Shown: piece by piece, positions 577 to 57,935 of the stretch | Position numbering within the stretch: the stretch's first letter is position 1 | How the letters are laid out: every line of letters begins with the position of its first letter | Assembly (NCBI GenBank): GCA_965112155.1 | Contig: OZ218104.1 | Source of the DNA: Podarcis liolepis | Lineage: Eukaryota | Direction: 5' to 3' (one strand) | DNA: 64,000 nt | The notes under the pieces: generated by a model | Told to the model about the DNA's origin: nothing | Database searches by the model: none | What the model saw: only the letters and a program-made list of their open reading frames with translations | Program-made: the position numbers and the translations under genes

Positions 577-3500
577 TGTTCTCTTTCTTTTCGTCTGAAA
601 ATATCATTTTTTTACTATTTAAGCTACGTTATCAAAATGTAAGTTGTGAAATTTGTCACCATTACTTTCATTTAACCCTGATAAATCCAAGGATGAAGTG
701 GGTTCAGCTACCCCAAAATCAGATGGTGTGAAGCAGGCCCTGGGGTGGGGTAGCTAATCTATAGTCTTCCAACTCCTGCCAGCTCCAGCCACCATGGCCA
801 GTGGTTAGGGGTGATGGGGGAGGGGGCTGTAGTCCATCAATATCTGGAGGGGCCACCCCTGCCTCAGATGAATGAAGGAGTAAGGATTTACAAGCCAGCC
901 AAATGCCAGATCCCACATATCACAAACTAACCTTAGCATTGCATGACTAAAACAAAAAGTTAACGCATTGAGATTCCCTGTTTAGTGTGCCAGAGAAATA
1001 TAACAAAGTAGTTACTACTTAGAACTGAATTGTTTGCTGCAATCATTTTTTTGACCCGACAAATTTGAAAGGAAATCTGAAAAGCATGAATTCCAGGCAA
1101 AAATCCTCTTGCGAGTTAGGCACCATTCTTAATAACCCACACTGCCTCATACTTAGGATTTTAAAGTCAGTCTCGGGTCTGTTTTGGCTAAAATGTGGAA
1201 TTTTATGAGAAGGGTATAAAATCCCGGGATCTCAATTTTTTTTTTTATTAAATTCATTTGTTTGCATAGCAAGCATGTGGCTTTAAAACACCTGGGCTTT
1301 TAACAAAAAGTAGCCAGTCTCTCTTATTTGCCTTGGGGCTTTCTCCCCCCTTCCCCTTCTAAAGAGCACAGGGTTCAACTTCAGCCAATCTTGCTGCAGA
1401 AACATTAACGAAAATCTGATGAGAGCAAATCCCAAGGTGATACGGCTGCAGGCAGCTGTGAGCTTTGAATAAAGCTGCACTGTGGTTAACACACTTAAAG
1501 GAATGTCAGCAAAAATGTAGCACTTGGACGGGCCCCCAGTCTCTGGCACCTTCTCTTTTCTCTCCACCCCCCCCCCACAGCTTATAAAGCAGAGGAAGGG
1601 AACCTGTGGCCCTCCAGATGTTGTTGAACTCAAAGACCCATTGACCCTGCCAGCATGGGCAGCAATCAGAGATGATGGGAGTCTGACAGTATCTGGAGGG
1701 CAAAAGAATCCTCACTCTGCCCTGTTGCAAAAGTTGAAGTCTACTGGCACAATCTGCCCAGAAAATTATCTGGTGCTGGCCCACTAAAATGGCAAAGAGC
1801 TGGGTAAGAGTAAAGCTTGTGACCCAAACACTCTGTGTAAAGGAGTAATATCAACAGCAGGGGCAGGCAACCTGGTGCCTTCCAGATGTTCATGGAATGC
1901 AACTCCTGGAGTGCTAACTGGGACTGGAGGGAGGGAACCCAGTAGACTCCCCCAAACTATACATACACCCTGTCTTAAGTTTGCTCCCCAAGCCTGTGCT
2001 TGCATGTTTGGCAGTCAGTCCCACAGAGCTCAGTGGGGCTTCCTCCAAGAAGCTGGGTCACAGTATTTTGCCCCTCTTTCCTAGCAACACAGACTGTGGA
2101 AGTACCATATCCAAGTGCAGGTCCCCACAGCTAACTGGGACCCTCAGAGACAGGACTCTGTGAGCCCAAATCTTCTGAGAAGATTCTCTAGGCTCCCTTC
2201 AGACCAAAAGCCCCACACAGTTTACGATGGGGAACCTGAGACCCTCCAGTTGTCTTGGGACTCCAGCTCCCATCAGCCCCCCCCCCCAGCATGGCCAATG
2301 GTCAGAGGTGATGGGAGTTCAAGTCCAGCAACATGTGGAAGGGGCCACAGGTTCCCCATCCCTCTGAAAGATGTCCTATCCAAGCCTTCCTCATGGACAG
2401 ATCCATTCAGGACCAAATTTAGTTCAATGGACAATTTAGGATAATCTCCTCCTGCCCTCACTGGACTTGTGTGAAATCTTAACATCATACTTTTTAAATC
2501 TAGTTGTTATCTTTCTAATTTAAAATAAGCCAACCTGTTTTGTAGGCGATATTTTTTTTTATTACTATTCTTCAGCCTGCTTGGTTCTGTAGCCTCTTGT
2601 GAGGTTTGTATGTTTATGTAACAAACGCCAATCTGATTATTTGATGCTTCAGTCCGGCCTGTGTTCTATTTGTAATCAGAATGAGCTAAGAGAGCTTATT
2701 ATTTGAAGCAGAAACCACAACGCTAGCTGTAATTGCACAACTTGGTATGCAAAGTTGCAAATTTTGTGTTACATCAGATTTGGGGCAGTAGGGGAGGGGG
2801 TCAGAGAGTGGATTAAATTTCTGCCGAAAGATGGGACACTGTTGTTTGTCACTGCGACGTATTATGAAACAGGTCTTCCTAATTGGGTTATCTGAGTATA
2901 AAGCAAAAAAAGAAAGAAAGAAAGAAAGGTGGTTTTCTCAATAGGACAGATGCCCTTCACAAATTCAGGAGAGAATCATTTACAAGTCCCCCATGTTGCC
3001 AACTGCTGTCTGCAGAGTGAGCAGCTTGAAATAAAACTGGACCAAGTCCCAGTTAAAATATGAATAGTTTCCTGTATGCTTTTAGTTTCTTATTTATTTA
3101 TTTTTATTTCATAAAATTTATACACTGCTTGATTGTAAAAAAAGAAAACCCTCAAAGCAGTTTACAAAGAGAATTAAAAAATGAAAATATCAGTAGAAAC
3201 AACTCTTTTAAACATTCAAAAGATAAAACCAGCAATAAACTAAAAACAGACTTAAGACTTATGTCAACATTCTACATATCTGGGTAGGCTTGCCTAACAA
3301 AAATTATTTTAGTGGGCACCAAAAAGAATACAGTGAAAATGCTTGTGTGACGTCAATAGACCAGGAGTTCCAGAGTGTAGGTGCTGCCACACTAAAAGAT
3401 TGATTTCTTACAAATGCGGAATGGGTATTCTGTAACACCTGCAACAGTGCTAATTCCTCCTATCTTAATGGTTGAGAAGGCATGTATGGGTTTTCCAAAT

Positions 3501-10357: not shown

Positions 10358-10714
10358 AAAGGTAAAGGTAAAGGGACCCCTGACCATTAGGTCCAGTCGT
10401 GGCCGACTCTGGGGTTGCAGCACTCATCTTGCTTTACTGGCCGAGGGAGCCAGCATACAGCTTCCGGGTCATGTGGCCAGCATGACTAAGCCGCTTCTGG
10501 CGAAACAGAGCAGCGCACGGAATCGCCGTTTACCTTCCTGCCGGAGCGGTACCTATTTATCTACTTGCACTTTGACGTGCTTTCGAACTGCTAGGTTGGC
10601 AGGAGCAGGGACAGAGCAACGGGAGCTCACCCTGTTGCGGGGATTCGAACTGCCGACCTTCCGTTCGGCAAGTCCTAAGCTCTGTGGTTTAACCCATAGC
10701 GCCACCCGTGTCCC
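10358..10714 (-). mobile_element. Full-length Sauria SINE, subfamily A
   Basis: GGGAC 5' start, tRNA-like B box (GTTCGAATCC), (ACCTTT)n tail; 13-bp TSD cctctgtgccata at 10345 and 10715. Confidence 0.9.
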
Positions 10715-11515
10715 CCTCTGTGCCATAGCTCATACTATTTCAGTGTCCCCCAACCTCAGCAACAAGGAATTTGAGGGGAGGGGTGCCTAAGCAGGTAGGT
10801 ACGACTGGCAAAAATTGGGTGTCCCACCTTGTGCAAGCCCCAGTAGATAACAGTCCTAACTAATTTTATCATTCACTTGAAGATTTATCCAAGTGAATTT
10901 ACTATTGACTGACTACTTCGAACAGCATACATTTTTGCCTGATCAAAACCAGCAATTCTGAAAGAAACCAGTGCTTTTATTGCCTGCACCCCGTATCATC
11001 ACCAAAGAAGCATTCCTCCTCTCACATGTGCAGAAGGGAATGCCTCTGCTGAGATAGCCCTTATTCAGCTACAGTTCTTATAAACACTTTAAAAAAATTA
11101 AAAGTAACTTAAAAAAAAAAAAAATCTGCTGCCCAGTTATGGGGGGGGGCACCATTTTTAATCCAATCAATTCATTTTAGTACCACGGAAAGTGTTCGTA
11201 CTGCTGTTAAACCGGTTTATCTGGGAAAGTGTTTCCAGATTCAAAGTGTAGCAGAGTATATTGACACAGGTGTTTTCTTCCTTAATCCTTCTGTCTCCCC
11301 CTCCTCCTCCCCCCCCCCTCCTCCACCACCCGGCACAGATCTCCTTTCAAATGCTCTGCTGCCAAGTGGAACAAGCGTCTGGAATGCAAGTCCTCCAGTG
11401 ATGTGGTTTGTTTATTTGTTTGTTTGCTTTCCCCCAAAGAACAAAAGACCAGAAGCACCGCAGGTTTGAATTTTCCACACTGAACATCCCCCCTCCCCAA
11501 TTCTCTTTCTTAAAG

Positions 11516-12975: not shown

Positions 12976-14078
12976 ATCATCCTTTTTAAAAAGCACTACT
13001 TGTGCGGGGATTTCATTATACTTGCCCAAAATCATCTTTCATAGGTTTGCTACAAAAATAAAAATACAAAACTGACACATGCCTCAGCTAGCCCAGGCCA
13101 TTGTGATCTGAAGTGCTTTCTGGAATGTGCATAGTGTTGGTTGACGTCACCAACAGCAAGCAAGAAAACACTCCCTCTTCCTTGTGACATCTCAAGGCAC
13201 CATTCAGCCTGCAAAGAGCAAGTTTGCACTGGACCAGAAACTGACTAATCTCCGGAATTAGTCCTTTGCCAGTTTCAACCCTTATTCCAATCGAGACCTT
13301 TTCAGGATTGGTCATTGGGCTAAAACTGATGATGGGGCTTTTCTGCTCCTTTCCCTCCCTTGAGGTTGGTTTCAGGTCTTTGTAGTCTTAAGTGTTCTCA
13401 TTTCGCAGGCTGGGGCCAAAATGGGGTGGCTGAACCAATATGGCTAACTGCTCTCATCCCCAATACACACAAGAACAAAAACCAGAATCTGCATAACAGT
13501 TACACTTGCTTTGCTCTGTGTAGATCGGCAAACAAGTGATTCAGGTTAAAGGCAGTCCTGTTGGTTAATGATCCCAGGGAATGACCTGAAGGCTCACACA
13601 CATCACAAAGCAAGCCTACTGCAGCAAAATAGCTTCAGCTCTGTTCAGTTCCTAGGTGAGAGACCATCTAGGAAACTCATGTATGTTGTCTTTAATGATG
13701 GGAAAAGGTGGAATATAAATTTGATTAAATAACACATAGTCCAGGGTTACATGTGTTTTTGTGCCCCCCTCCTTTCAAATCTGCACGTGGCAAACCCAAA
13801 TTATGTATATGTTTATTACATTTTATCTGTTTGACAAGCATTCACATAATTTGGATTCTTTAAGGAAGGGGTGAAGGGAACAAATGGACATGGAGACAAG
13901 AGAGGAGTTGGCAAGAAAACACTGGAGTATGATGCATTGGTCTGTGAAAACATTAACAAAACAAGTTGAGAAAATTATTTGCACATAGCATAGTAATAAC
14001 ACAATGCCTTATTTCTGCCAGTAGCATCCTCCTTAAACTCTCTCTGCTCTCCCCATTTCATTCTGTGTATTTAAACAG

Positions 14079-14300
14079 GTTGGAGGAATTAAGGACAAAG
14101 TTCTAGCAGCACACCGAGCTGGTCTAAAGCGAATTATCATTCCTCAAAGAAATGAAAAGGATCTTGAGGAGATTGCCGCCAACGTACGGCAGGATCTGAA
14201 TTTTGTGATGACAAGCTGCCTGGATGAAGTTCTTAATGCCGCTTTTGATGGGGGATTTTCAGCCAAGACAAAACTTGATCACTTCAACAGTAAACTCTAA
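14079..14300 (+). CDS. LONP2: LONP2 terminal coding exon with catalytic Lys region and C-terminal PTS1 (SKL)
   Basis: ttaaacag acceptor; VGGIKDKVLAAHRAGLKRIIIPQRNEKDLEEIAANVRQDLNFVMTSCLDEVLNAAFDGGFSAKTKLDHFNSKL then TAA at 14298-14300. Confidence 0.97.
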   Translation, partial: VGGIKDKVLAAHRAGLKRIIIPQRNEKDLEEIAANVRQDLNFVMTSCLDEVLNAAFDGGFSAKTKLDHFNSKL

Positions 14301-16128: not shown

Positions 16129-17495
16129 GCACAGTGCTTAAATGTCATATGATACTATGCAAGACAGCACTAGCCCTGGCCTTGTTCCATGGAATGTAGC
16201 TTGGGCATGTGAGCGAGAGATGCATCCTTCACAGGGCTTAATATATGACTGCAATTTTGGCTTTTAAGAACTCCATGTGCAACACACTACTTGACTAGTG
16301 TACAAAATCATACCATAGGGACGGAAGGGGGTATTTCTTACCACACCCAGTGCTCAAAGGACATGGGGTTCTGCAACCCACCGCAGGCTACAGGCACTTT
16401 GATTTGATTGATAGATGTGAACACACGAGCAGCACTACTTTATTGTACAAAGTTGTGGGTACAATTAGTATTTATGGGAATTTTGTTTTACAAACATACA
16501 AGGCTACAGGCAAGCACTTCAGATACGCAGTGTGGTGTTGGATCACTTTCCACTGCATTTTATTTATTGCTCTTTCAGCTGTTCCTGCCCCTCCCCCATC
16601 TTCTCCCACATCAAGCAGGGCAAATCTATTCTGGTCATGAATAGCTCAGGGCTTCTGAAGTCACAACCTCATCACACCCAGAGGTATTTGATCAATGCAA
16701 GATTGCAAGCGATACTGGTAGAGTCAGCTTGCTTAAACCATTTTTGACACACCCACTATTTTGACACTCTTGGAAATATGCTCCCTGCCACAAACTCTGT
16801 GTGTTTAAATGGGCCAGCTGCAATTCCTTTTGTTCACTCTCAAAATAAGCTTTCATCATAATTGCCCCACACAAGCCCAGCTTTTGGTTCATATATTCAG
16901 TACTGCTCTTTAAAAACGTTTTCAAAGCCACTGGGAAATTTTCAATAACTTAGGGCTGCACAGTGCTGTGCACTTACTTAGAAGCAAGTCTCGCAGAATG
17001 CAATGAGGCTTGCTTTTGCACGCAAACGTAGGATTGCAGGCTTATCATGACATCAACTGAAAACAATCTAGTCAAGTACAGCAACCCTCACCCTAGGACA
17101 ACTGAGTCCTGCAAAAGAACAATAGTTGTTTTAGAACTCCTAGTAAATATTTTACTTTTGAGTGTCAACCAACATATAGAGGTGATCTAGTCAACACTGT
17201 GTACATAGGGTTGTATCCAATTCAAGAGTGGGCCCAATAAAATAAATGGGCGTAAGTTAGGTATATCCATTACTTTCAATAGATCTGCTCTAAGTAGGAA
17301 AAACACTGGAAACAACTCTGACTTTGAAAAAACCCTTCACAAAAAATACTTGAGTAAGCTTCGTAGTTATGGGATAAGAGGACCTCCTAATGGAGAGTGA
17401 GATAGTGGAGTCCCCTTCGTTTCAGTATTGCAACCTGTGCTTTTCAACATGTTTATTTATAGATGTGTTTGATAAATGTATTTATAAACCACCAA

Positions 17496-17531
<36 letters not shown>
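17496..17531. repeat. (CTAT)n microsatellite
   Basis: Direct reading. Confidence 0.95.
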
Positions 17532-19089
17532 TGTGGTGTAAAATAATAATAATTTGTTAATTTATTATTTGTACTGCATCCATCTGACTGGGCTGCCCCA
17601 ACCACTCTAGGCGGCTGATTAAAATCATTTAAAAAATCATAAAACACAAAGCCAACAACCAACCCTGAATCAAAGTAATTCTCTACAAAACACTTGGCAA
17701 CAAAACATTGTAATTGCCTGTTTAATTTCCATGGGAACAGTTATCCAAAGTACTAGCGCCATGATGCTAAAAGCTTTAGTTCTCATACACACTAAACAGA
17801 AATGAGGGTGGCATTTGATTATTGTAGTGATAAGAGACAAGGGAAGCCGTGATATTCTACCTCCTCTGTCAGCAGCAATCAGAAAACCAGTTTCTGGAAA
17901 TTGCAAGAGGAGAGAGTGTTGTTGCACTCAGGCCCCGCTTGCAGGCTTCCCACAGCCATCTGGTGATCACTGTAAGAACAGGATGCTGGACTAGATGGGC
18001 CTTTTGGACCAAGTCAGTGGGGCTCTTCTTATGCAGTGTATCCTCAACTTCTAACAGATGCCTAAAAACCTAGACAGCCATGTAAGGATACTGTAAGCTG
18101 TTAGGTACTCAAGTCCCCACTTCTTGTCCTATTTTTCTTTCCCAGCTGACAGCCAACATGCTGACTGCTGACCATGCTCCATTATCATCAGACTAAATTT
18201 GTATTGGGCCACTGCAGAAAAGGCCCTCACTAGAACTTTTTAGATGAGTCTTGTTTAAAAGGGAGAAAGCAGGGTATACAATTAGGGCACCAGGCAGCAA
18301 ATGCATATAGATGAAGCCCTCCTCTTCCTAAATATATTTTCTCCAGACAGAGAACTGAAACCCTAAGGGGAGGACACACACGCGCGTCATTCCTGGAGTT
18401 TCCTTTCTCTTGGCTCCCGTTAACCAGCTTATTTTTATCGTTCTTGAACCCTGCTCAATTTGTATTTGTCAGTGGGAGATTCTTCCTTGGCTCAGAAGCG
18501 GGGAGATTCCTCAGCTAATCTTTTCCCTCCTCTGCTCCTGTAGAGCAAGCTTTGTGGGAAATTTTGCCCTCCGACCCTCACTGCTAAGGAATGCAACCCT
18601 TTGTCTTCCTGCTAGCCAGTCTGGAGACACTTGATGAGAAAATCCTGCAGGCACCCCTTGCCTCTCCTGGAATGGGAAGCTACCCCGCCTGAAGTTATAG
18701 GAAGCCACTGGCCCAGGCAGGAAATGTTAATGGAGAACTGGGAGGGAGAACTGATTGAACTTCCCTTTTGAAAAAGCTCTGTAAGCTCCCCTTCCAACAC
18801 ATCACTGAGTCATGATTCAAAGCAAGCTGCTAGGCATTGCTGTGAAATCACCCTTTCCATCTACTCCAAATCCAGGGCATGAAAAAATTATCTTGAACCA
18901 GAAGGAAAGTATTCCTTAGTGCAGCAACTCTAACTCCCAAACTCTGGTCTATGAGCCACATACAGGTGGTCCATGGTATAGCCCCATTAGATATCATGTG
19001 TTTAATTATACTTTTGTTGCTTCTTTTATTGTAATCCTAAATGCACTTTACTGTACTATAATCTGAATTCTACGATTCAAACTGTAATA

Positions 19090-19295
19090 CAGTGGTACCT
19101 TGGTTTACAACCATAATCCGTTCCGGAGGTCCATTTGTAAACCAAAACAGGTTGTAACCCAAGGCACGCTTTTGCCAATGGGGCCTCAAAAAAAAGGGGG
19201 GAAGGGTTGTAATCCAAAAAAAGGTTGCAACCCGGGACATGCACTTCCGGGTTTGATGTGTGTAATCCAAACTTAGGCAAACCAAGGTACCACTG
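19090..19295. mobile_element. Tc1/mariner-type MITE
   Basis: TIR cagtggtaccttggttt; TA TSD. Confidence 0.85.
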
Positions 19296-22075
19296 TACAG
19301 TATAATACAATGTAAGAAATAAAAGCAGCAATAAAAATAGATTAAGAATGGTACAGCATCTAGCACAGCACATTGCAAAAGGCAGCTGAAATATCAGAGC
19401 TATAGTCAAATTGTCACTGATGCCAAGCTACAGTCTTCTACTTGAGTAAGCTTCGTAAAAAGAAAAATAGAATTTCAGTAAAGGAAGGTTACAGCAGGGA
19501 TCAACACTTCACTACCCCACCCCCCAAAAAAATTCCACATTACAACCAAAAGTTCATAGGGAGACATCTCCAACCAAGGAGGCAGCTCCAAGATATTACT
19601 CCAAAATGGAAGAATGAATACACATCTCCTGTCCCATTGGTTATTGAATATGTGGTCATAATTCTGTTTCAGCAGGATTTGATGCCATAATACTGTTCCC
19701 ACCCTATTCTTCCAAAGGCCTGTGCAGGCAGCCACTGTAGGGGGCTCAAGAATGAAAAGCAACCAAGTAAACACTTCCTTTTTAATACAGCCAGGCTGCA
19801 TCATTGTCTGTCTTGAAATTTGTATTTCACAAAGGGGAAAACACACATAATGCTTTCCCTCCAATTATTGCATGTATACATGAGCTGAAAGCAGCCAAGG
19901 ATGGGGCTAGGGACTGCCCTAAACACTGTGACACAAAATAAAATTGATGCTCTGGAAAAACCCACTTTGTTCATTCTCTCGTTACATGTCATAGCAACAT
20001 AGACTCCTACAAAGCCCCACACCCATATGCTAATATTTCATTTCCATAGTCCATTTCTGAATTTAACCCAGCAAGTATAACAGGAGTCTCCAGTAACAAA
20101 AGAGATTCAAACCGGTCTAACTTGCACATCAAAAGCCAGGATGTTAAGTGTAGTGTATGAACAAAGGATCTGAGATTTGTTTACCTCTTTTGTTCTCTCA
20201 CATCTCTGACTTTCTAAGCACGAAGGTTTCAACCCTAAACACACCATTACTAGGAAGTAGTTCTTACTGAAAACAGTTGGTTTTACTTACAGGTGAAGAT
20301 GTGTAGAAGAGGGCTGCACACATTTTTTTAACTGTTACATAGGCAGTCTATTTTCTCCATTAAAAAGGGCACACGAGGACAACCTGGATCTGACTGCAGT
20401 GCATTCAGCTTTTTTTTTTAAGGCAGTAACAACATTGCCTCACTCCTCAAAACCATTTTTATAAACCTGGTAAAGGAGTCTGCCGCTGATGCTGCAGCAA
20501 TGGCTCTCACTTCAAGCTGCATGAGAGTGAGAAGCCACAGGGCAACAAGAACAAATCAGCAGCTACTTTCTGTTTCATTAAGCAAATGTGTGGCATTCAT
20601 CTTGGACCATTTAAAAAAAATTTTAAAAATAAAAAATGTCTGTGCATGTCAACTAGAATTGCTCCCCAACTGATCTGGATTATTATTATTTTTTTCAGAA
20701 AAGAAAAATCCACCGGAGAGCTGCTGGTGATCAGGGTATACACTAGCAGCTTAGACAGACTCTGGGCAGCTTCATTATGACTTGGCACATAGTTTGAAGG
20801 CACATAGTGCAACTGATTTGCTGACGCTAAGCAAGTTTAGATCTGGGCAGGGTCTGAAAAGCTTCCATGTTCATTGCTTTGAGTTCCATCCCGGAGGACA
20901 GGGGAGATATACATATTAAAAATATATGTAACCTTAGTTATACTGCCAAGTGGGTTTGCAAACATTCCCAGAACACAAGATAATTCAGGAAACTCAAAGA
21001 AAAACCTTTGCAAAGTCAGTAGTGCAGCAGTTCAACACCTAAATCCTATATGGCTAGGATCCATGTTACCTGAAAGATTATCTCTCTTTTTGAACCTGCC
21101 CTGGTGCTAAGATCTGTGGGAGAGCATCTTCTCTTGGTCCCATCAACATCAAAGTTGGTGGTGACACGAGAGCAAGCCTTTTCCTATATTGTGGGATTCC
21201 CTCACAAAAGGGGTTAGACCAGATCTCTGTTATCATTTCACCAGTAGGTTAAGAACTTCCTATTTAGACAGAGCTTTAAAAAGCAGGTGCAGTTTATGTT
21301 CACTACTGGGCTGCTTGTTATCAGGGCAATCAGTATGTTAATACTGGCTCTAAGTGTGTTTTACCGTATTTTAACTATTGTTTTTAACTAGATTGTTTTT
21401 ATTACTTCACATTTTAAAATGTTTTTAAAACTGTTGTAAGCTGCCTTGAATCCCAACTTTGGAGAAAGGTGGAATAGAAATACTTTAAATAAACAAACAA
21501 ATCCAGCATAATTGGCTGCAGTATGCACAATGGTCCAAGGTGCTCTCTAAGTATATTTGCAATGTCACAGAAAACAGCAGGGCAGAGATTCTCAGAAAAC
21601 ATACAGCTGCCAAGATGCATGCCATCCAAATTGCATGCCATTTCACTGATGCCCTGAAACGTATCACTGTCCAAAGCAAGGTTATCTTAAAATATCTGCA
21701 TAATTCTTACTCAGTTTCAATGCCCTTCCTTAAATACAAGGGGGAAAGAGGGGCAAACATTCAGAAGTAAACTTCAGAGTCAAATGACCCCCCCAAACAA
21801 AAAAAAATCAGAAAAAGGATTTATGCAAATACATTGATTGGTTATGTGTACATTACACCTTAAAGTGAGCAGAGCCCTGCTGGATCAAGACAATGCCCCA
21901 ACTAGTCCAGTACTTTGTTCTCACTGCAGCCAACTGGATGCCTGTGGAAAGCCCACAAGGAGGACCAAAATGCAACAGTGGTTTATCTATTTGAAATTCC
22001 CAGCAACTAGAATTCAGAGACATACTGCCTCCACCATCAGAGACAGAACCAAGCAATTGTGACTAGTATTATTAA

Positions 22076-23881
22076 CAAAACAAATTCCTTCCATCCAGTA
22101 GCACCTTGGAGACCAACTAAGTTTGTTATTGGTATGAGCTTTCATGTGCATGCACACTTCTTCAGATACACTGAAACAGAAGTCACCAGACCCTGATATA
22201 TAGTGAGATGGTGGGGAGGGGCATTACTCAGGATAGTGGGAATGGGTGATTGGCTGATAGGTGTGGTAAACCTGTTGACAACTGTTAACGACTGCAATTG
22301 GTCTTACAGGAAAAAGCAAGGGGTGAGATGGCTTTAAATAGCTTTATCGTGTATAATGAGATAAGAATCCAATGTCTCTATTCAGACCACGTCTCTCCAT
22401 GGTTTTAAGCTTGGTAATAAGTTGCAATTCAGCAACTTCTCTTTCCAGTCTATTTCTGAAATTCTTTTGTAATAAGACAGCTACTTTGAGATCTTGTATA
22501 GAAGGTCCTGGGAGATTAAAGTGCTCTCCTACTGGTTTCTCTGTCTTGTTATTCCTGATATCAGATTTATGTCCATTTATCCTTTGGCGTAGGGTTTGGC
22601 CTTTTTGTCCAATATAGAGAGATGAAGGGCATTGTTGGCATTTGATGGCATACACAATGTTAGATGAGCAATTAAATAGTCCTGAGATGGTATGTTTTAT
22701 GTTGTTGGGGCCAGTAATGGTGTTGTCCGGGTGTATGTGTCAGCAAAGTTGGCATCTGGGTTTATTGTAGGCTCTGGTACCAGTGTCCATGTTAAGTCTG
22801 GTTGTTTAAGATTGGGTGGCTGTCTGTAGGCAATGAAAGGTCTTCTTCCCAGAGCTTGAGAAAGAACTGTCATTTTCTAGGAGAGGTTGTAGATCTCTGA
22901 TGATGCGTTGAACTGTTTTAACTTGGGAGCTACAAGTGATTACTAGTGGTGTTGCTATTTTCTTTTTTGGGTCTGTCTTGCAGCAAGTTCTCTTTGAGTA
23001 TCAGTCTGGCTCTGTTGATCTGTTGTTTAACTTCATCAGGTGGGTATTTTAGTTCTAAAAAGGTTTGCCGTAGATCTCTTAGGTGAATGTCTCTGTCTGT
23101 AGAGTTGGAACAGATGCGGGTGTAATGTAGGGCCTGGCTATATACAATGGATTGTTTGATATGTTTGGTATGGTAGCTAGAAGCATGTAGATATGTTTGT
23201 CGGTCAGTTGGTTTACGGTATAAGGTGGTGTCTATACGCCCATCCTGTATTTTTATAGTAGTGTCCAAAAATGTATTTCTTGCATAGATTGGTTCATTGT
23301 TAGGTTGATGGTGGGGTGAAAGTCATTGAATGTCTGGTGGAAGGTGTCCAGGGTCTGCTGACCATGTGTCCAGATAATAAAAATCGTCAACATATCGCAG
23401 GTATAAGATAGGTTTGAGTGGGTAGGAGTTTAGGAAATGCTGTTCTAAATCTGCCATGAAGCTGTTGGCATACTGTGGGGCCATGTGGGTGCCCATTGCT
23501 GTGCTACTGATATGGAGGAACAGGTCATCACCAAATTTGAAGTTGTTGTGGGTAAGGACAAATGGCAGAGTTTGGTAGCAAAGTCCGCTGTGATTTTATT
23601 TGAAATGGTGTTCCTTATAGCTTGTAATCCATCGCTGTGCGGGATGTTGGTATACAGAGATTCCACATCCATAGTGGCTAGTATAGTATTGTTAGGAAGA
23701 TTATTCAAAGATTGTATTTTCCTCAGAAAATCTGTGGTGCCACATACGTAGCTGGGAGCACTGATGGCATATGGTTTCAAAACAGAGTCCATATAACCGG
23801 AAACACCCACAGTAATAGTGCCAATACCTGAGATAATGGGGCATCCTGGATTTCCTGGTTTGAGTATTTTAGGTAGAAGAC
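22076..23881 (-). mobile_element. 5'-truncated, decayed Penelope-like retroelement (RT plus GIY-YIG endonuclease, probably Neptune-type)
   Basis: RT motifs LATMDVESLYTNIP, TAMGTHMAPQYAN, YLRYVDD and TTLYRKPTDRQTYL; Cys-rich linker KPRCQLC; GIY-YIG domain VYAIKCQQCPSSLYIGQ...RINGHKS...EHFN. Several frameshifts and stops. Possible degenerate TSD agtattattaa (22065) / agtatttttaa (23882). Confidence 0.92.
22132..22169 (-). ncRNA. Minimal type I hammerhead ribozyme motif in the PLE 3' repeat
   Basis: Minus strand reads GUAU-CUGAAGA-A-GUGUGCAUGCACAU-GAAA-GC-UC-AUAC: core boxes, stem II, palindromic AGCU stem III and a 4-bp stem I. Confidence 0.7.
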
Positions 23882-24857
23882 AGTATTTTTAAGCAAGCTT
23901 AATACGCAACAGGCTGAATGGCACTTACCTTAATGCAGCTGCTCATTTCATACCTGCTTTGAAGTCAAAACTAATTAGTAGCACAGTCAATATCCTGTTA
24001 AAGCAAACTGCAATCTATTGAATTCTAGATTACAACTAAATATTTACATATAACATAGCAGTTTGGGGGGGGGGAGGAAATGGGCAGGATCAGCCATATT
24101 TAAGTACTTTGAAGTACTTTGATAACCAAGGAATTGCATGTGGGAGAGTGACTGGGCTGATTACCAGGACAGAGTGCTTCATTCTTCCTCTACACAAAGT
24201 ATAGAAATCATTGGGCTGCCAGAGAAAGGAAATCCCACTGCCACCTCACCTAGCACAGAAGCTCTACAGCTGTCCTCTGCTAGCCTATGACAGACTAGTA
24301 ACTCTCCTGAGCTTAGTCACAAGACTGATTCAGCCACAGCAGACATGGAGAAGTACCCCTCACACAGTGTATTCAAACCCTCTCTCCTCCCAGTTCCCTA
24401 TCTGCATTGTGCTGAAGCTTGCCTTGTGCGTCTTGGTGAAATGAGGTTCTTTTTGTGCCTCACCTATCTGCATCCAGCAGCCTTCTGCTTCCTAGACCCC
24501 CTTCCCACCACAGTGCTATTCCAGCTGTTGAATAGATAGAATATTTCCCATTCTTGCATTGATTCCTGCCTGCCCCTTCTATTAAAGGAATCCTTATAGA
24601 TTACTTTTAATCTTTCACAAGCACTTCCCTCAGGATAACTTTTAAGACATGCAGAGTGTTCATCTGTGTAATCCGCACAAAAATTAAGAGAGCCTTGGCA
24701 CAGATCCCATTGGCAAAACAAAAGTAAACACAAAAGAAATATCACATTGGTTGACATTTCTGGAAAGTAGATGCAGCACTAAGCCCTGCATGTTGAATCC
24801 CAGAAATCCCAACCATTAACGTTCCAGAAAAAAGGTCAGGTCAAAGAATGGCTGCTA

Positions 24858-24891
24858 CCACCACCACCACCACCACCACCACCACCACCAC
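24858..24891. repeat. (CCA)n microsatellite
   Basis: Direct reading. Confidence 0.95.
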
Positions 24892-25687
24892 TGGGAATTC
24901 CTCTAGGAGCTAGGAACACTATCAGTGTTCCCCTTGTGCAAGAACAGGCAGCATATCCTTGGACAAAGGAACAAGGAATTCTGAGCAATGTTGCATTCAA
25001 GTGAGCTTCTATTCCGTTAAGGCAAAAAATTCACTTAAAAGAGTTTTCAGTTTGCCAGGAATTCTTTTAATGACAGAATTTAAAAAAGACCAAAAACAGC
25101 TTATTTCAACTGCCTCATTTAAACAAATGGTCTGTAATTTATAGTTACAAATACTGTATAGACAATGCCTTCTTGTACTGCACAACCAATAAATACAAGA
25201 ATGACTTCAAAATGTCTAAAGGTCTCTAAAGTCATTTGAAAATGTGCCTGACCTTCCACTTTTTTAAATTAGAACATTCTCAAACAAATCTGCAGTTATG
25301 CTTGAACTCAAAATACAATGGCATCTACAATTTAAAAGAAGCCTTTTTAGGAATCAGTTCAATGTTGCCCCTTTTTAGACACTGTTATGTTCACAAAAAT
25401 AGCTGAATGAACAACAGTATCATTGAATGAACTACTGGAAAGAGACTAAGGACTTCAATCCTTTGCAGAGTTACTCAGGTTTAAGTTCCATATAGGTCCA
25501 CAGGACTTATCTGTACTATATAACCACTGGCAGGATTGCACCCCCCTAAAAATGATACCAAACATACAGAAGTATACACTTTACCATAAGTAATTATAAG
25601 TATCAGAAAATGGACACCTGTAATTAATCTCAAAGGGTCAAAAAAAGGAAAAAGGAAAAACCTGAATTACATAAAAGAAAAAAATCA

Positions 25688-25693
25688 TTTATT
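25688..25693 (-). terminator. SIAH1 proximal polyadenylation signal
   Basis: AATAAA on - about 560 nt after the stop codon, followed by a U-rich downstream tract. Confidence 0.7.
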
Positions 25694-26250
25694 TAATGAA
25701 AAACTAGAAGTTAATAAAAATTAGCAAATACACAGAAAATTTACACAAGAACAGCAGCAATACTATGTAGTGACTTACGCAGTGGGAGGGGGAGGAAGAA
25801 TAGGGGGAAGTAGCGGCCAGAGACTGGACCGCCTTGCATGGCTTGTCAGTCAAAGGAAAAGAATACAAATTAAACACAAAACAGTATCTGTTCCAAACGT
25901 ACAATCAATCTACAAACAAGTTTAGAATTATTTTACAACACATTTCATTCAATCAGTTCTTAATACAAAAAGATGCCCATTTTGGGTAGAATATATATAT
26001 ATATACACATACACGCATATATATATATTTTCAGTGGTTTACTGCTGACTTATTTTAAATATATTAGTGTTATTACATGCAACTGTTTCCTGTACTTTAA
26101 CAGCCTTCCTATTAATTTACCTTCATATATGCTAACCTCTCCCTACCAAATTGTTCACATTTGGCAGTCAAAGATGTTTACCTTTGTTCTATGAAACTGA
26201 ATGCTGTGGGTTGTTTTTAGACACTGGCCTGAAAACGTCAGATCGCGGTT

Positions 26251-27099
26251 TCAACACATTGAAATCGTCACATTAATGCCTAAATTGCCGTTCTCTGCAA
26301 AAAGCTGTGCAATGCTGGTGTCAAAGACTAGACAGTCACTGTTCATGATGGCAGTTGCAATCCCTTCGTGAATTGATCGAGGAGTTGCTTCCCAAGTCAA
26401 TCGTCGCCTATGACCATTTAGCTCAAGTCGATAAGCAAAATTTTCAGCTTGTTTCCGTGTTCCTATCAGCTGTACAATTGCAAAGAACTGCTGGTGACCA
26501 TCATATTTCTCCTGTTTCTCCAATACAAGCATGAAGTGAAAGCCAAAACAAGACTGCATCATAACCCAGTCAACGGCACCAGGAAGATTAATGTCTGTAG
26601 CAAGGAAAACTATATCTTCTCCCTGTAGCGTCGTTATTGACTTATGCTGGTGCATGAGATGAGGCATGACAGCATCTAGAGAGCCTTGCCATTTACAAGA
26701 AGCACCAGGACATGGGCACGAATAAGGCCTGAATTCACAAAGCTCTTCATGGTCTGCTTTTTCAGTGTGGGGCAAAGTGATTTCGCAGCCAGAGGAGGCA
26801 TATTTACAAGGAAACAGTACAGAGTTGGCAACCTTTTCCATAGCCAAGTTACGAATTGAACCCAGTGGGCCTCGGCAGGTCGGACAGCATGTGAGCTTGG
26901 GACGACAGTTGCTACAAACAAGATGGCCACTTTGGCACTGCAGAATAGGTGGCAGTACATAGTCAAAACAGACAGGACACTCAAAGAGACTAGCCAAGTC
27001 ATTGTTGGAAGCGGTGGTGCCAGTCAATGCAGGCACCCTCTGTGATGGTGTGCACTTGGAGGTACCCGTGGGAAGCGCTGTAGCAGTTTGACGACTCAT
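26251..27099 (-). CDS. SIAH1: E3 ubiquitin-protein ligase SIAH1, main coding exon (282 aa)
   Basis: [16 protein letters not shown]... with RING ([25 protein letters not shown]...CPTC), SIAH zinc fingers and substrate-binding domain ending NVTISMC-TGA. The acceptor cttacag|aaATG puts the exon start at 27101. Confidence 0.99.
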
Positions 27100-27230
27100 T
27101 TCTGTAAGAAAGCAAAACAAAATGAGCACATTTGTAAAGCTCCTTCTTTCAAAAGAAAACAATCAAGCCTACTTTTCAGGGGGGGGGGGGAGAATCTGAC
27201 ACATTTACTAAATGTAAAAATGGTCTAATC

Positions 27231-27364
27231 CAGGGTTTCCCAAACTTGGGTCTCCAGCGGTTTCTGGACTACAGGCCACCATCCCTGACCACTGGTCCTG
27301 CTAGCTAGGGATAATGGAAGTTGTAGTTCAACAACTGCTGGTGATCCAAGTTTAGGAAAACTTG
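27231..27364. mobile_element. Palindromic hAT-type MITE related to 4935-5070
   Basis: 8-bp TSD gtctaatc; imperfect arms. Diverged relatives occur near 740, 1590, 2230, 3750, 4270, 6640, 14920, 15800 and 49530. Confidence 0.8.
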
Positions 27365-30259
27365 GTCTAATCCAACAGGGCTTATAGGTCCATCTAGTCC
27401 AGCATTTATTTCTCACAGCTTCCAGAAGGGTAACAAGCACAACATGAAGACAGCAACCCATCCTATATGCCAACTTCCCCAGAAACTTGGTATTTACAGT
27501 GATACTGCCTCTGATCATAGAAGCTCCACTTAGCTAGACCAATTCTCCATTAAATTTTCCAATCCTTTTTCAAAGCCATCTAAGAGGATGGATGTTGGGG
27601 AGGTTTTGCTAAGACTTCCGGGTATAGGGCAGTATATAAATTCAATAAATAATAATAATACCAACACATGTTACTTGAATTGCAATCAATATATAATGTA
27701 TTGGAATATGTATTTTAACCACATTTATTAATAATTTGTAACTAAAGAAATGGATGAGATAGTTGTAAAGGAATACTGCTTAATTAGAGCACCTAATAAG
27801 GTGGTTTAGGGTAAATGAGTTTTAATCTATTTTTTAACAGCCATCTAAGCCATGGTCAACACCACATCTTGTGGTTGGGAATGCCATACATTAATTTGTT
27901 GTGTGAAAAGTGTTTTCTTTTGTCTCCCCTGAAATTAATTTCACCAGGGGACCCAATAAATGCTAAATATTACCACATTTCACAATGTCTGAAATCAGAA
28001 CCTGATGTGATCTGCATTAAAACATAAGAGCCACCATCAAGTTCATGCTCATGTCTGCGTCTAGGTCTCAGTGGAAGCAGTGGAAGTTAAGCGTGTTTAA
28101 CTGTGTCTGAATTACAGCCAAAGTACCAATGAAGTTTAAACAGGGTATTAAAAAGTCTTATATAGCAACTAGTCATATGGCGTTAATAAGTAGTACAGAC
28201 ATTCAGGTGCTGGTTTTGTATGGAGTAACACAGTCTGTTTGAGAAAGTAGTATCTCGGAGTTAAAATGCTCCTGAAACGCAAATGCCAAGAGAGCTTCTC
28301 TACATGTAGGATACATCAAACCTGTGATTGTAGCCACACCCTGAACAATGTATAAAAACACAGGACTGCAGTCACAATCCTTCTGTCATAACAACTGCAA
28401 GCAAAACCTGCAAGTGACCAGTAAGCTGGTTTGTTTTACTGCATATATTTACCCCACAAAGAAAAATCCCTGAGGCATGCAACAGTGGGCAACTGCTAAT
28501 GATCTCAGAGATGAGGTGATTCTTTCCACCATCTCAAAAATCAGACTAATTAGTGTCTACTTAAAAACATAACAGCTTCTCTAGTTAAGTTTTGTGCTAT
28601 TCAGGAAACCTTATCCTTGATACATTCAAAGTTCTTGCTCAATATACTCTGGGCAGCAATTAGCAATTTTGCTTAGCCATTTGCAGCAAAGAAATCTCTA
28701 CCTCACTTAAAGACAAGCAGTAACCTTACAAGGAAAAAGAATGACAAAATTCCTGGTGTATGTATCGACACATACTTTGCATATAGTGTTGTTTTAAAGA
28801 TAGGATAGTAACATCTTTTTTAAAAAAAAATAAGCAGACTAAAATAGAAACGTTTTGTACTATTCACACTTCAAGCACAGTAACAGCTTACAAATTGGTT
28901 TTTCACATTAGTCAAAATATTTTCACAAAGTCTCTAACCATCTGGCTACATTTTTTGTGTGTGGTTGCAATGCTATTACATACCTTAGAGACTATAGCTA
29001 ACCTTAATAGCCTGCTAAAAGGTTCACTGGGAACTGAGAAGCTTATGGTGCATTTTTAGTGAACATAGAACTGCAAGTATTTAAATCAATTAATGGTATG
29101 GATCAAGCAATTAAAATATTTTGAATAAAAATATGCCACCAATTAATTGATAGGCAGATTCTTTCAAGAATCTAATCACACTTTGTAGGGAGTAATTCCC
29201 ATTAACACAGTGGGCCTTACTTCTGTGTACACATGCATATAGACACACTGCACTAATTATTTTTGTTTACAAAAACATCATATTGGAACAGACATTTCTT
29301 CTATCAGACAATAAGGAATCTCTTTCCATATGCTGCCCCCTGTGACACGTGTACGCATCTAAAAGCAAAATACAATTTCCTTCAGAATAATTTATTTGTA
29401 CACAGGTGTAACCAACAGATTACAATTTATGACCCAACCATTAAAAACCTTTAAATCACCTGACAGCCCACACATGTAGATAATTCAATGTAGGAAGAGT
29501 TAAATGTTCATTTCGGCATCCCCTCTTCCCATCTTGTAAGCCTTGCAAGGTAATTACCACTACGCATATGCTTAGAAGCTGGGCACCAGAACAGGCAAGC
29601 TCAGCTACCACACACATTTCAATACACCACTGAACAAGTCACATTCAACTCTGAATGACCATTTAGACATAAGCACGTTGCCTCACTTTTTACCAAATTA
29701 ATCTGCAATGCAATAAATATATCCACTGACAAATATCAGGTTGTCCCAACTATCTTGCAGGCCCAATCAGAACCTTCAGTTATCTATGGAACTCATTGCT
29801 GGAAGACCGGAGAAATCAACTAGTTTTCCTATGGGCCAACTCTCACAACATTTTAATATGAGTAAAATTACAATATCCAACAAGAACCCAGAACCTGCGC
29901 CTTCTCCCTCCCTCCCTCCCTCCTCCTGGCTTCTCCCTGCCCTGCCTAGAGAAGGAAGGGGGCTGGGCTTTGATGAGCCGCAGTTGGCTGAACACCATTT
30001 TAAGCAGCCTCTCTCCGGAGCCAGCCCTTTTGTGCCGCTCATCATCCTGCCGCCAGCCCCTGCCGCTCATAAGGAATAGGTAAGCAGCCACTGGGGCTCA
30101 TCCAGTGCTGTAGAGAAGGGGAGAGTCAGTGGGGGGGCTTCCCAAAATATAGTCCGCCCCCCCAAGGTCTGAGGAACAGTGGACCGGCCCCCTGCAAAAA
30201 AAAAATTGTTGACCCCTGGATTAGTGCACTGTGTTGTGTGATTGGGTTCCCTTGAAAAT

Positions 30260-33560: not shown

Positions 33561-34350
33561 GAGGAGTAGAACAGCTCATTGCGTTTCTCCATAGAAACAA
33601 AAACAATCCACAACAGAGGCCCCTCCTGGAAACGCCAAGGCTTAGAGACAGCCGGCGCGAAAACAATACCCAGAAGGGGGCACAAATCCATGCGAGGCAG
33701 GCAGCTCCCTGAACAAGGGAAGGGCGTTCCTTTAATGAAAGTTTCCGAAGTAATCCAAAGTGAAAGACGTGCTAGTGTGAAGAAGCTGCAGAAAGTCTCA
33801 CCAATTAGATCCACTTTGATTAGGAAGCCTCCTAAGATGGAGACCCGAATTTCGACCCCCACCCAACTCCTTTTCTTGCGCGATCTCCGGAGCCCTCGCG
33901 AATCTGAACTGGAAACAACTGCGCCCAAACCCAAGAGGGAGGCGCACGGTCACATCCAAAGCAGAAGCAGCAACTCCCGAGTTCAGTCCGAAGCCTCGTG
34001 TGGCAAAGCTATTGGTCGCCGAAGAAAGCCTGAGCTCACTCTCCGCCAGCTCCTCCTAACGCCAGTGAGAACGAGGCGGCGGTATCCTGCTTGGGCCCAG
34101 GGAGGGAAGGAGGCTGGGCGGGCAGATCTGCCTCACATGATCAGCCGGACTCCGTTTGCAGCCAGCTATCGCAAGCATCCGCCAAGGGAGACTGCTTAGC
34201 GCAGCAAAGGTCGCGCCGGGAAAAGAAGGCTTGGTCCTTCCTTCGCTACGAAGGGACGATCCTGGTCACTGCTCGCCCGGAAGACGCTCTCGAGGCGGGA
34301 GGCAAACAAGCGCCGGCCCATCCACCCCAGCCCCTCCCTCTCCAGCGATT
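33560..34350 (-). promoter_or_regulatory. Intragenic CpG-rich alternative promoter and 5' leader of the SIAH1 long isoform
   Basis: CpG and GC enrichment against an AT-rich intron; CCAAT box (ATTGG near 34011 on +) and GC box (gggcggg near 34117); lies directly upstream of the alternative ATG. Confidence 0.7.
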
Positions 34351-37543: not shown

Positions 37544-39435
37544 TATGAGGGACAATAAGCTGGGCTTTAATCTTGACAAAATTGGAAACACGGTTCCTGT
37601 GTCCAAGAAATCTGTCAACTGCTTGTTCTAGGCAGGATTGTACACCCCCTGATGAAGCAGGTATACGGTCTGGAGGGCTTCTTAATCCAGCTTTGTCACT
37701 GGAAGTCTGGGTTGCCTCAAGGGCTAGAAGTGCCTTTAACTAGCTACACCTGGTATTACAGCTATGATCATTCCTGGGCTGGGAGAGCTTGGCATAGTAG
37801 TTCAGGCACTGGTGACTTCAAGATTGGATTACTGCAATGCATTCTTTATGTAGGGCTGGTTGGGCTTCTTTTAATTGAAAAAAAAAACAATAGTTATTTT
37901 AAACCACTTAGAGGTTTCATAATATTCAAGTGGTAGATACATTTTGTTAAAAACAACTACATGTAACTACCTTAACTCTGTATCAAAACACAACCGAGGA
38001 AGTTCAAAAAGATGGAACTAGGAAATGCAAGTATCCACTCACTAATACACACTGGCACACTCTCTCACAATTATTCATGTGCAGGCTTTAAAAAAAAAAT
38101 ATTTAACAAAATGAAAATAACACCATGGGTGCAGCCAGGATTTGGGGGGGCAGGACTTTGTTGGGGGGCAGAACTAACATGATTGGACTATTAGTTAAGT
38201 ATTTCTATTGTTTCACTTGATCGGGGGGGGGGGCTGCCCCCAGGCTACATCCATGTATACCGACCACTAAATAAAAACAATCTTAAGTGCTTCCCCCCGC
38301 TCTTAAATAGAAGTTAAGCCAATATTTTAAACCTAGTCCAAATAAATTTGACGTATATATATACACATTGTAAGTGAAATGGAGAAAATAAGTAAGAAAT
38401 ATTTGCCGAAATAGTAATGATTTCTTTTTAATCCGCCTACTATCCAGAAGTCTGTATAATAATAGACCAAGACAGATCTGACTACAATGGGTATGGATTG
38501 TTGCAACTCTTAAATTTTAATGCATGTCTTATTTAAGACTATATATCCTACCAATTTTCCTTTCAAAACACTAACCCAGTAATGAAATGTGTTAATGAAC
38601 CACTGTAGTTTAGTTATTTTTGTATTACACAAACACAAAAGCTTCAGGAGAGATAATTATGGGTTTTCTTGAACTCCTATCAGTCAGGAAACTTCGCATC
38701 AAGTTCCAGTTTTCAGTACATGCATTAGATCAAAAAGGAAAGTTATATCATAATATTCAAATACATAGGGCAATACTTAGCAGATGGGTTTCAAACCCTT
38801 GGTGAGTTAGGTACTTCCCCTGCATGTGAGGACAAGCTCTAGGTGGAGGAGACAAGACGGGGTGGGAAAACAGAGCGATGTAGACACCATTATCCCACCC
38901 CAGGGGAAATGACAAAACAGTGCCAGGGCAGGACATGCTATTCCTTCTGTGACTTATGTCACAGTAGTGTTGCTGCATTTTCTCCGGATGCAGCAATGCT
39001 CTGCCTGCATAGGCTTGGGCAAAGGCAACATTTTCAAGCCCTGCCTATACAATGTACAAAATAAGCTTGATGCTGTTAGTGAGAGTTACACCTGCATGGT
39101 GGCTATAACAGTGCTTGCAGGACTACAGCCATTGCAAAGAACCTTCAAACTCCAACAGACTGCTAGCAATTTATAGGACAGAAGTGTCCAACCTTTTTGG
39201 AAAGCTTGCTATAAATCATGTTCAGAGTACAAGACAGACTTTTTCTAGTGTACACTGCAATGCCTATTTGGATCTCAAGAGCACTGTTTGATTGGTTATA
39301 CCACTAGCCTATTGAGCCAAAGGTACATGTAGCTGTACAGACGCAGGCAGAAGTTTGGGCCTAGATATGGTATACAGTCAGGACTGGGGAGGTGGGTGGG
39401 GACTCCTTCCTTGCCTATCAGTGGCACACACCTTA

Positions 39436-56912: not shown

Positions 56913-57935
56913 TGTCATGGGTCGTATATGTGTGAGTGTCGCTTCACCTGCTGAACAGTAACCTGAAGGCAGAGTGACTCCACCTGCAGCTGATCAGCCT
57001 TCAAGGACACAAAGGAGAAGGTGCTGATGAGAACTAGGTGGCTTCAGCCTTCTTAAGCAGAGCTTCCAGCAGCAGTCAGATGCTGGTTGCAACACTTGTG
57101 GTTCCTGGTTCTATCTTGCTGCTTCCTGCTCATTTTGACTCTTGACCCCAAGAGCATCGGATTCCCTGACCCCTGGATCGACTGCCACATAGATGCCAAT
57201 GCAATTCTGGGCTGCATCAATAGGAGTATAGCATCTAGATCAAGGGAAGTAATAGTGCCACTGTATTCTGCTCTGGTCAGTCCTCACCTGGAGTACTGTG
57301 TCCAGTTCTGGGCACCACAATTCAAGAAGGACACTGACAAACTGGAACGTGTCCAGAGGAGGGCAACCAAAATGGTCAAAGGCCTGGAAACGATGCCTTA
57401 TGAGGAACGGCTAAGGGAGCTGGGCATGTTTAGCCTGGAGAAGAGGAGGTTAAGGGGTGATATGATAGCCATGTTCAAATATATAAAAGGATGTCATAAA
57501 AGGATGTCACATAGAGGAAGGAGAAAGGTTGTTTTCTGCTGCTCCAGAGAAGCGGACACGGAGCAATGGATCCAAACTACAAGAAAGAAGATTCCACCTA
57601 AACATTAGGAAGAACTTCCTGACAGTAAGAGCTGTTCGACAGTGGAATTTGCTGCCAAGGAGTGTGGTGGAGTCTCCTTCTTTGGAGGTCTTTAAGCAGA
57701 GGCTTGACAACTATATGTCAGGAGTGCTCTGATGGTGTTTCCTGCTTGGCAGGGGGTTGGACTCGATGGCCCTTGTGGTCTCTTCCAAACTCTATGATTC
57801 TACTGTTTGCCTGACCCTAGGACTGGACCTGACTTTGGATGTGGATTCTGCCTCCAGGCAAGTTCACCTCAGAGTCTTTTCTGGTTGGCTGGCCTCCCAC
57901 TCCATTGAGCCCTGCGCGTTGCTCAGCAACAAGAC
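56913..57935 (+). mobile_element. Possible solo LTR split by the CR1 insertion
   Basis: Begins TGTCATG; pyrimidine-rich ctgacc/ggac repeats continue on both sides of the CR1. Confidence 0.35.
57193..57802 (+). mobile_element. CR1 LINE 3' fragment
   Basis: [46 protein letters not shown]...[11 protein letters not shown]; frameshift at a duplicated ataaaaggatgtc; CR1 tail ctatgattcta. Confidence 0.95.

Follow-up and report, generated by a model that had tools for sequence, protein, structure and literature searches.

A minimal hammerhead motif between SIAH1 and LONP2 of Podarcis liolepis as a probable fossil of a Penelope-like element

Results

Convergent genes and a truncated insertion between them

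We analysed a 64,000-nucleotide stretch of Podarcis liolepis DNA (hereafter the window) in which SIAH1, on the minus strand, and LONP2, on the plus strand, converge. A hammerhead motif lies in the gap between them in the SIAH1-sense orientation, as the initial annotation had it. The features are as follows.

14037..14300, plus strand: frame with the last LONP2 coding exon, ending SKL-stop; an upstream exon matches Lon_C
22065..22075, minus strand: candidate target-site duplication, 3' copy (by eye)
22090..22343, minus strand: 3' untranslated pseudo-LTR, from the stop codon to the end common to other copies (alignment of other copies)
22132..22169, minus strand: minimal type I hammerhead motif (sequence, fold of stems I and II, 19,574 copies at up to 3 mismatches)
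22135..22136, minus strand: predicted cleavage site after C17 (hammerhead numbering)
22144, minus strand: U in place of the family's C at position 11.1, turning the G10.1-C11.1 pair into a G-U wobble through a CpG-type transition (copy counts, loci selected by reverse transcriptase)
22344..23883, minus strand: broken 3' two-thirds of an open reading frame with reverse transcriptase (RT), linker zinc finger and GIY-YIG endonuclease (tblastn, Pfam)
23882..23892, minus strand: candidate target-site duplication, 5' copy, an AT-rich stretch of 11 nt that differs from the 3' copy at one position (by eye, empty site unseen)
25688..25697, minus strand: overlapping ATTAAA/AATAAA 0.56 kb past the SIAH1 stop with U-rich sequence after it; probable proximal poly(A) signal, presumably used
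26251..27162, minus strand: SIAH1 coding frame (Sina RING, zinc finger and TRAF-like domains)

The motif is located 3.5 kb past the first SIAH1 AATAAA (25693), in agreement with the distance of about 3.5 kb from the proximal poly(A) site given initially, and 7.8 kb from the LONP2 stop (14300), an interval in which both strands carry several poly(A) hexamers. A search of the literature on the overlap of SIAH1 and LONP2 found no ribozyme paper by title. Elsewhere in the window, 33570-34199 (plus strand), within the region of the SIAH1 gene, holds a stop-free frame of 209 aa that had no Pfam match and is possibly a repeat. The stretches 57057-57608 and 37740-37853 (both plus strand) gave no significant Pfam match, and we take them to resemble CR1-type and L2-type LINE fragments; 10359-10790 (plus strand), in a LONP2 intron, presumably resembles a lizard SINE.

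Sequence and fold of the motif

Read directly, the minus strand from 22169 to 22132 is GUAU CUGAAGA A GUGUGCAUGCACAU GAAA GC UC AUAC, exactly the sequence and strand first reported, and it is a real minimal type I hammerhead motif. It consists of a 4-bp stem I, one extra A past A9, a 14-nt stem II and an AGCU palindrome in place of stem III. Stem I is formed by 22169-22166 and 22135-22132 (GUAU/AUAC), which pair in the fold of the 38-nt piece; the core follows in type I order, with C3-A9 at 22165-22159 (CUGAAGA), an unpaired A between positions 9 and 10.1 at 22158, stem II at 22157-22144 and G12-A15.1 at 22143-22140 (GAAA). The AGCU palindrome occupies 22140-22137 (15.2-16.2 being palindromic), without a monomeric helix III, and UC at 22137-22136 places C17 of the CUC triplet at 22136. 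Hammerhead numbering thus puts the predicted cut between 22136 and 22135, the same position as originally proposed. All 13 letters of the CUGANGA ... GAAA ... UH core are intact.

Folding of the 38-nt piece yields both stems, I and II, with stability z-scores of 0.37 for this piece and 0.34 and 0.65 otherwise, not above shuffled sequences. The check suggested initially, a search with hammerhead models, gave no support: Rfam covariance models run on 17000-28000 at E up to 10 returned 13 matches, none to a hammerhead family, a miss that would be expected because helix III is absent. A loose core pattern matched the window 9 times where 8.5 matches would be expected, and the motif at 22132-22169 itself accounts for 3 of them. 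What sets the motif apart from chance is the presence of both stems, its position 3' of a frame with RT and GIY-YIG domains, and 19,574 repeats of it against 0 for the reversed control.

A broken Penelope-like element as the host

The sequence assigns the motif to a 5'-truncated, frameshifted Penelope-like element of Neptune type on the minus strand (22090-23883). Its relatives align from 23883 and stop at 22090/22089, after which a T-rich tail follows. The motif sits in the terminal repeat of the element, 175 nt past the GIY-YIG stop and 42 nt ahead of the shared end. In tblastn the remnant of the reading frame covered about residues 225-748 of the frame of one relative (locus L033), split into three pieces that occupy two frames and all contain stops, so that the earlier description of a Penelope-like host with a broken ORF is confirmed. 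In L033 itself, RT and, at the C terminus, a GIY-YIG domain lie in one open 748-aa frame (827-3073, plus strand; RVT_1, E 2.9e-12; GIY-YIG, E 3e-5), to which the window copy aligns brokenly; the window piece matched GIY-YIG at E 1.9e-4, just under Pfam's cut-off. Searches of PDB and phage sequences with the ORF pieces gave no match. Recent activity of the family is suggested by the open frame of L033 and the 11,672 exact motifs.

Between RT and endonuclease, all 19 loci picked by RT similarity carry a CX4CxxC linker, whose first cysteine is changed in the window copy, and two cysteines lie within the GIY-YIG stretch. The Neptune clade, as described in the accessible text of Craig et al. (2021, PMC8557442), likewise has RT followed by C-terminal GIY-YIG, two such cysteines and a CX2-5CxxC linker that is missing in Penelope and Poseidon; the putative assignment to Neptune rests on the linker. 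The window copy differs from Neptune elements in its broken ORF and its changed first linker cysteine. Inverted 5'-truncated neighbours are another Neptune trait reported there and are common among the matches listed here. In those matches many motif copies form inverted pairs tens to hundreds of bases apart (e.g., G000 C1, 3041638/3041683, 3442244/3442282 and 4018581/4018626), the inverted 5'-truncated layout known for Penelope-like elements.

Upstream of the motif, the element contributes two AATAAA hexamers to the SIAH1 strand (23595-23600 and 22761-22766, minus strand), the former created by a change private to the window copy; read-through RNA could end at such a hexamer before reaching the motif.

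The 5' junction of the element at 23883 was bridged by contigs of 4/4 DNA runs compared, a subset of the 20 listed, under three organism labels; the 3' junction was unbridged, so the comparison covers the 5' junction only. The shared junction implies that the insertion is older than the split of these close relatives. One flank contig had 14 differing letters in 1,675, and persistence over so short a distance is compatible with selection and drift alike.

Copy number in the genome

Across the whole genome (1.57 Gb), the 34-letter form of the family gave 19,574 matches at up to 3 mismatches, or one per 80 kb. If the copies are evenly spread, at least one would fall in the 11,950-bp gap with a probability of 0.14; for a sense-strand copy near a given point, the probability is 0.03 within 5 kb and 0.06 within 10 kb. 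With about 20,000 copies at this density, the site between SIAH1 and LONP2 needs no special reason, and a similar motif must neighbour many genes.

Loss of C11.1 in stem II and probable neutral decay within the family

The family closes stem II with G10.1-C11.1, and the window copy has U at 11.1. The C11.1 form is present in 11,672 exact copies genome-wide and in 24/24 motifs of the 19 RT-selected loci; the U11.1 (T) form has 571 exact copies. Altering the G10.1-C11.1 pair slows hammerhead cleavage. The description of the catalytic core as intact holds for the 13 core letters, which are untouched, but not for the conserved closing pair of stem II, which is G-U here and G-C in the family. The accessible text of PMC4209133 describes G10.1-C11.1 as a highly conserved, not invariant, pair of minimal hammerheads. 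Having lost C11.1, the window copy is classed here as a decayed descendant of the family, at most a putative working member. In two of the 19 loci (L047 and L049), both motifs carry U for C at position 17 (4/24 motifs), which points to a possible subfamily with a CUU triplet.

Mutations of the same CpG allow a family-wide view of selection on the core. The mirror change G12A, which kills the core, was found in 674 copies against 571 for C11.1U, a family-level comparison (TG/CA) that says nothing of the window copy and may include subfamily variants. Dead cores thus show no depletion in comparison with the milder change, the imbalance running the other way (binomial p = 0.004); that G12A is as common as C11.1U matches the prediction of neutral decay.

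Against the majority of 48 other loci, the window copy differs at 99/1,810 scored columns (5.5%; columns with at least 8 rows and a majority of at least 60%), a divergence biased low because these loci were its best matches; bases were missing at 6 places. At 5.5% divergence, a 13-nt core would be untouched with a probability of 0.48. Within the 38-nt motif, 1 change was seen and 2.1 were expected (P of at most one change, 0.39), a comparison to which a single 38-nt copy lends little power.

Predicted capacity for cleavage

The 64,000-nt window contained no second copy of the repeat that could serve as a cis partner, so a dimer would have to form in trans. The computed energies were -2.8 kcal/mol for the stem II hairpin of the window copy (-4.1 for the family form) and -6.7 kcal/mol for its double hammerhead (-11.1 for the family form); the intermolecular stem III, of 4 bp, came to -2.5 kcal/mol. 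An extended duplex of stem II was computed to be far more stable, at -27.6 kcal/mol for the window copy. In the family form, stem II is a perfect 14-nt palindrome (e.g., L019) and its pairing amounts to -30.6 kcal/mol against -11.1 for the double hammerhead. Since stem II is palindromic, two copies are predicted to favour the extended duplex and leave stem III unformed, which may be one reason why such motifs need protein. These energies are equilibrium models that ignore co-transcriptional folding and proteins. In three longer contexts, the pair probability of stem I was 0.0.

We also looked in the genome for copies starting exactly at the cut site, as past cleavage might have left, and found 12; a control position 3 nt further downstream gave 7, so the excess is not a clear one. 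Several of the 12 appeared by eye to follow inverted repeat pieces or AT-rich DNA. The genome sequence thus holds no clear trace of past cleavage.

Hammerheads that cleave as dimers were reportedly described by Lunse et al. in 2017. For minimal hammerheads, the accessible text of PMC4209133 reports that a single motif is uncut and that dimers and trimers are cut at a low level. An Anolis motif was uncut in the absence of the element protein, and RNA-seq reads neither began nor ended at its site (PMC11167929, accessible part). One of nine Xenopus retrozyme dimers was cut, according to the available text of bioRxiv 10.64898/2026.07.22.740005, and the function of the hammerhead in endonuclease-bearing elements is called unclear in that of PMC8557442.

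Discussion

The motif is of a class that is already known: it descends from, and would work like, the minimal hammerheads that Penelope-like elements carry and that were reported for reptiles in 2014. The features common to the window motif and those described by Cervera and De la Pena (2014; PMC4209133, as far as its text is accessible) are a location in the terminal repeat of Penelope-like elements, a 4-bp helix I, a long helix II, one unpaired base separating positions 9 and 10.1 and palindromic 15.2-16.2 (GC). Most copies there are solo and dispersed and tied to truncated elements, as here, and they were reported in Neptune elements of fish, in turtle and in snakes; the supplementary sequences of that paper may include this exact family. 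The window copy differs in having G-U for G10.1-C11.1, the one structural feature in which it departs from the class named by the initial annotation, a Penelope-like minimal type I hammerhead with a palindromic stem III. Another reptile element, PAc of Anolis carolinensis, likewise carries a hammerhead in its pseudo-LTR (Frangieh et al. 2024; PMC11167929, accessible part). PAc belongs to a different clade (Poseidon), its ORF begins inside stem II and its cleavage was demonstrated with protein, whereas the window motif is a solo 3' copy followed by no ORF.

The most probable explanation by a wide margin of our confidence is that the motif is a neutrally decaying passenger in a dead Penelope-like element, an ordinary fossil that would rarely or never cut. 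The hammerhead would have been carried into the SIAH1-LONP2 gap within the 5'-truncated retroelement insertion. In intact tandem elements, according to the literature, precursor RNA is thought to be cut by double hammerheads, in which one copy pairs with another to make stem III, possibly aided by the element's protein. The solo copy in the window has no cis partner, its stem II is weakened and it would supply no protein itself, so that, even if polymerase continues 3.5 kb beyond the SIAH1 poly(A) signal, slow cleavage between two molecules would come too late, after degradation or release of the RNA. Some observations do not fit this explanation so readily, namely that the 13 core letters are intact and the G-U wobble still pairs, that the insertion has been kept since close relatives split (5' junction in 4/4 runs), and that an efficient hammerhead past a poly(A) site can release pre-mRNA early (PMC2288634, accessible text).

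Continued low-rate cutting of SIAH1 read-through RNA by the window copy, paired in trans with other family transcripts or aided by protein from active copies and with no selected effect, is improbable, yet somewhat less so than any role for the host. The intact core, at least 11,672 perfect motifs as possible partners and a relative with an open 748-aa frame (L033) are in accord with such activity, as is the weak cutting of dimers of such motifs in vitro (PMC4209133, accessible text). However, the intermolecular stem III has just 4 bp (-2.5 kcal/mol), the active fold is made less favourable by the G-U pair and by competition from the stem II duplex, and copies that start at the cut site (12 against 7 in the control) are not clearly enriched. 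In addition, the region bound by protein in Anolis lies within the first 172 nt of the ORF (PMC11167929, accessible part), which is absent after the 3' motif, if the comparison can be carried across clades.

The initial annotation had suggested that the motif truncates SIAH1 read-through RNA or aids termination before collision with LONP2. Co-option of the window copy, with co-transcriptional cleavage that would shorten long SIAH1 transcripts or help to stop polymerase ahead of LONP2 transcription, seems to us very unlikely, and a host role for the motif at SIAH1 is unlikely in general. The setting does lend itself to the idea, since the motif is sense-oriented and lies 3.5 kb beyond the proximal poly(A) signal of one of two convergent genes and the insertion is common to three organism labels. 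On the other hand, such a position is expected by chance, the LONP2 stop is 7.8 kb away, beyond several poly(A) hexamers of both strands, C11.1 is lost and there is no clear sign of selection (1 change against 2.1 expected in 38 nt). SIAH1 and LONP2 are adjacent in mammals too. These elements are absent from birds and mammals according to the available text of bioRxiv 10.64898/2026.07.22.740005. The suggested function is thus left unsupported by an intact core expected with P = 0.48, the loss of C11.1, a 14% chance of a copy in the gap, the lack of a partner in the window and a loss of G12 as frequent as that of C11.1 across the family.

The evidence that cutting helps termination is itself mixed. 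Engineered hammerheads and co-transcriptional cleavage terminators (West et al. 2008; PMC2288634, accessible text) are likewise placed on the sense strand past a poly(A) signal, and an engineered hammerhead can mimic such a terminator; in that work, an efficient hammerhead past the poly(A) site left the termination profile unchanged and pre-mRNA was released earlier. Those tests used a fast monomeric ribozyme, whereas the window motif cannot form stem III alone; a fast ribozyme could matter in principle, and the window motif is predicted to be slow. The accessible parts of two further sources state that the downstream product of a ribozyme is undegradable owing to its 5'-OH (PMC6938672) and that ribozyme cuts are expected to short-circuit the XRN2 chase (PMC2702688). 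Resistance of the 5'-OH product to degradation argues against the motif aiding termination.

A more specific version, in which the motif has been domesticated at the SIAH1 3' end and cuts read-through RNA only when trans-paired with active Penelope-like transcripts, strikes us as equally far-fetched. If it were true, the 3' end of a host gene and its termination would be adjusted by how active the transposon is, a host gene would be using a transposon ribozyme that depends on a trans partner, and the locus would offer an in vivo test of whether such weak ribozymes cut at all. As found, the motif has little significance of its own, being one decayed copy among about 20,000 of a motif class described in 2014. 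The lesson is that, at 5% divergence, an intact core inside a broken element is no sign of selection.
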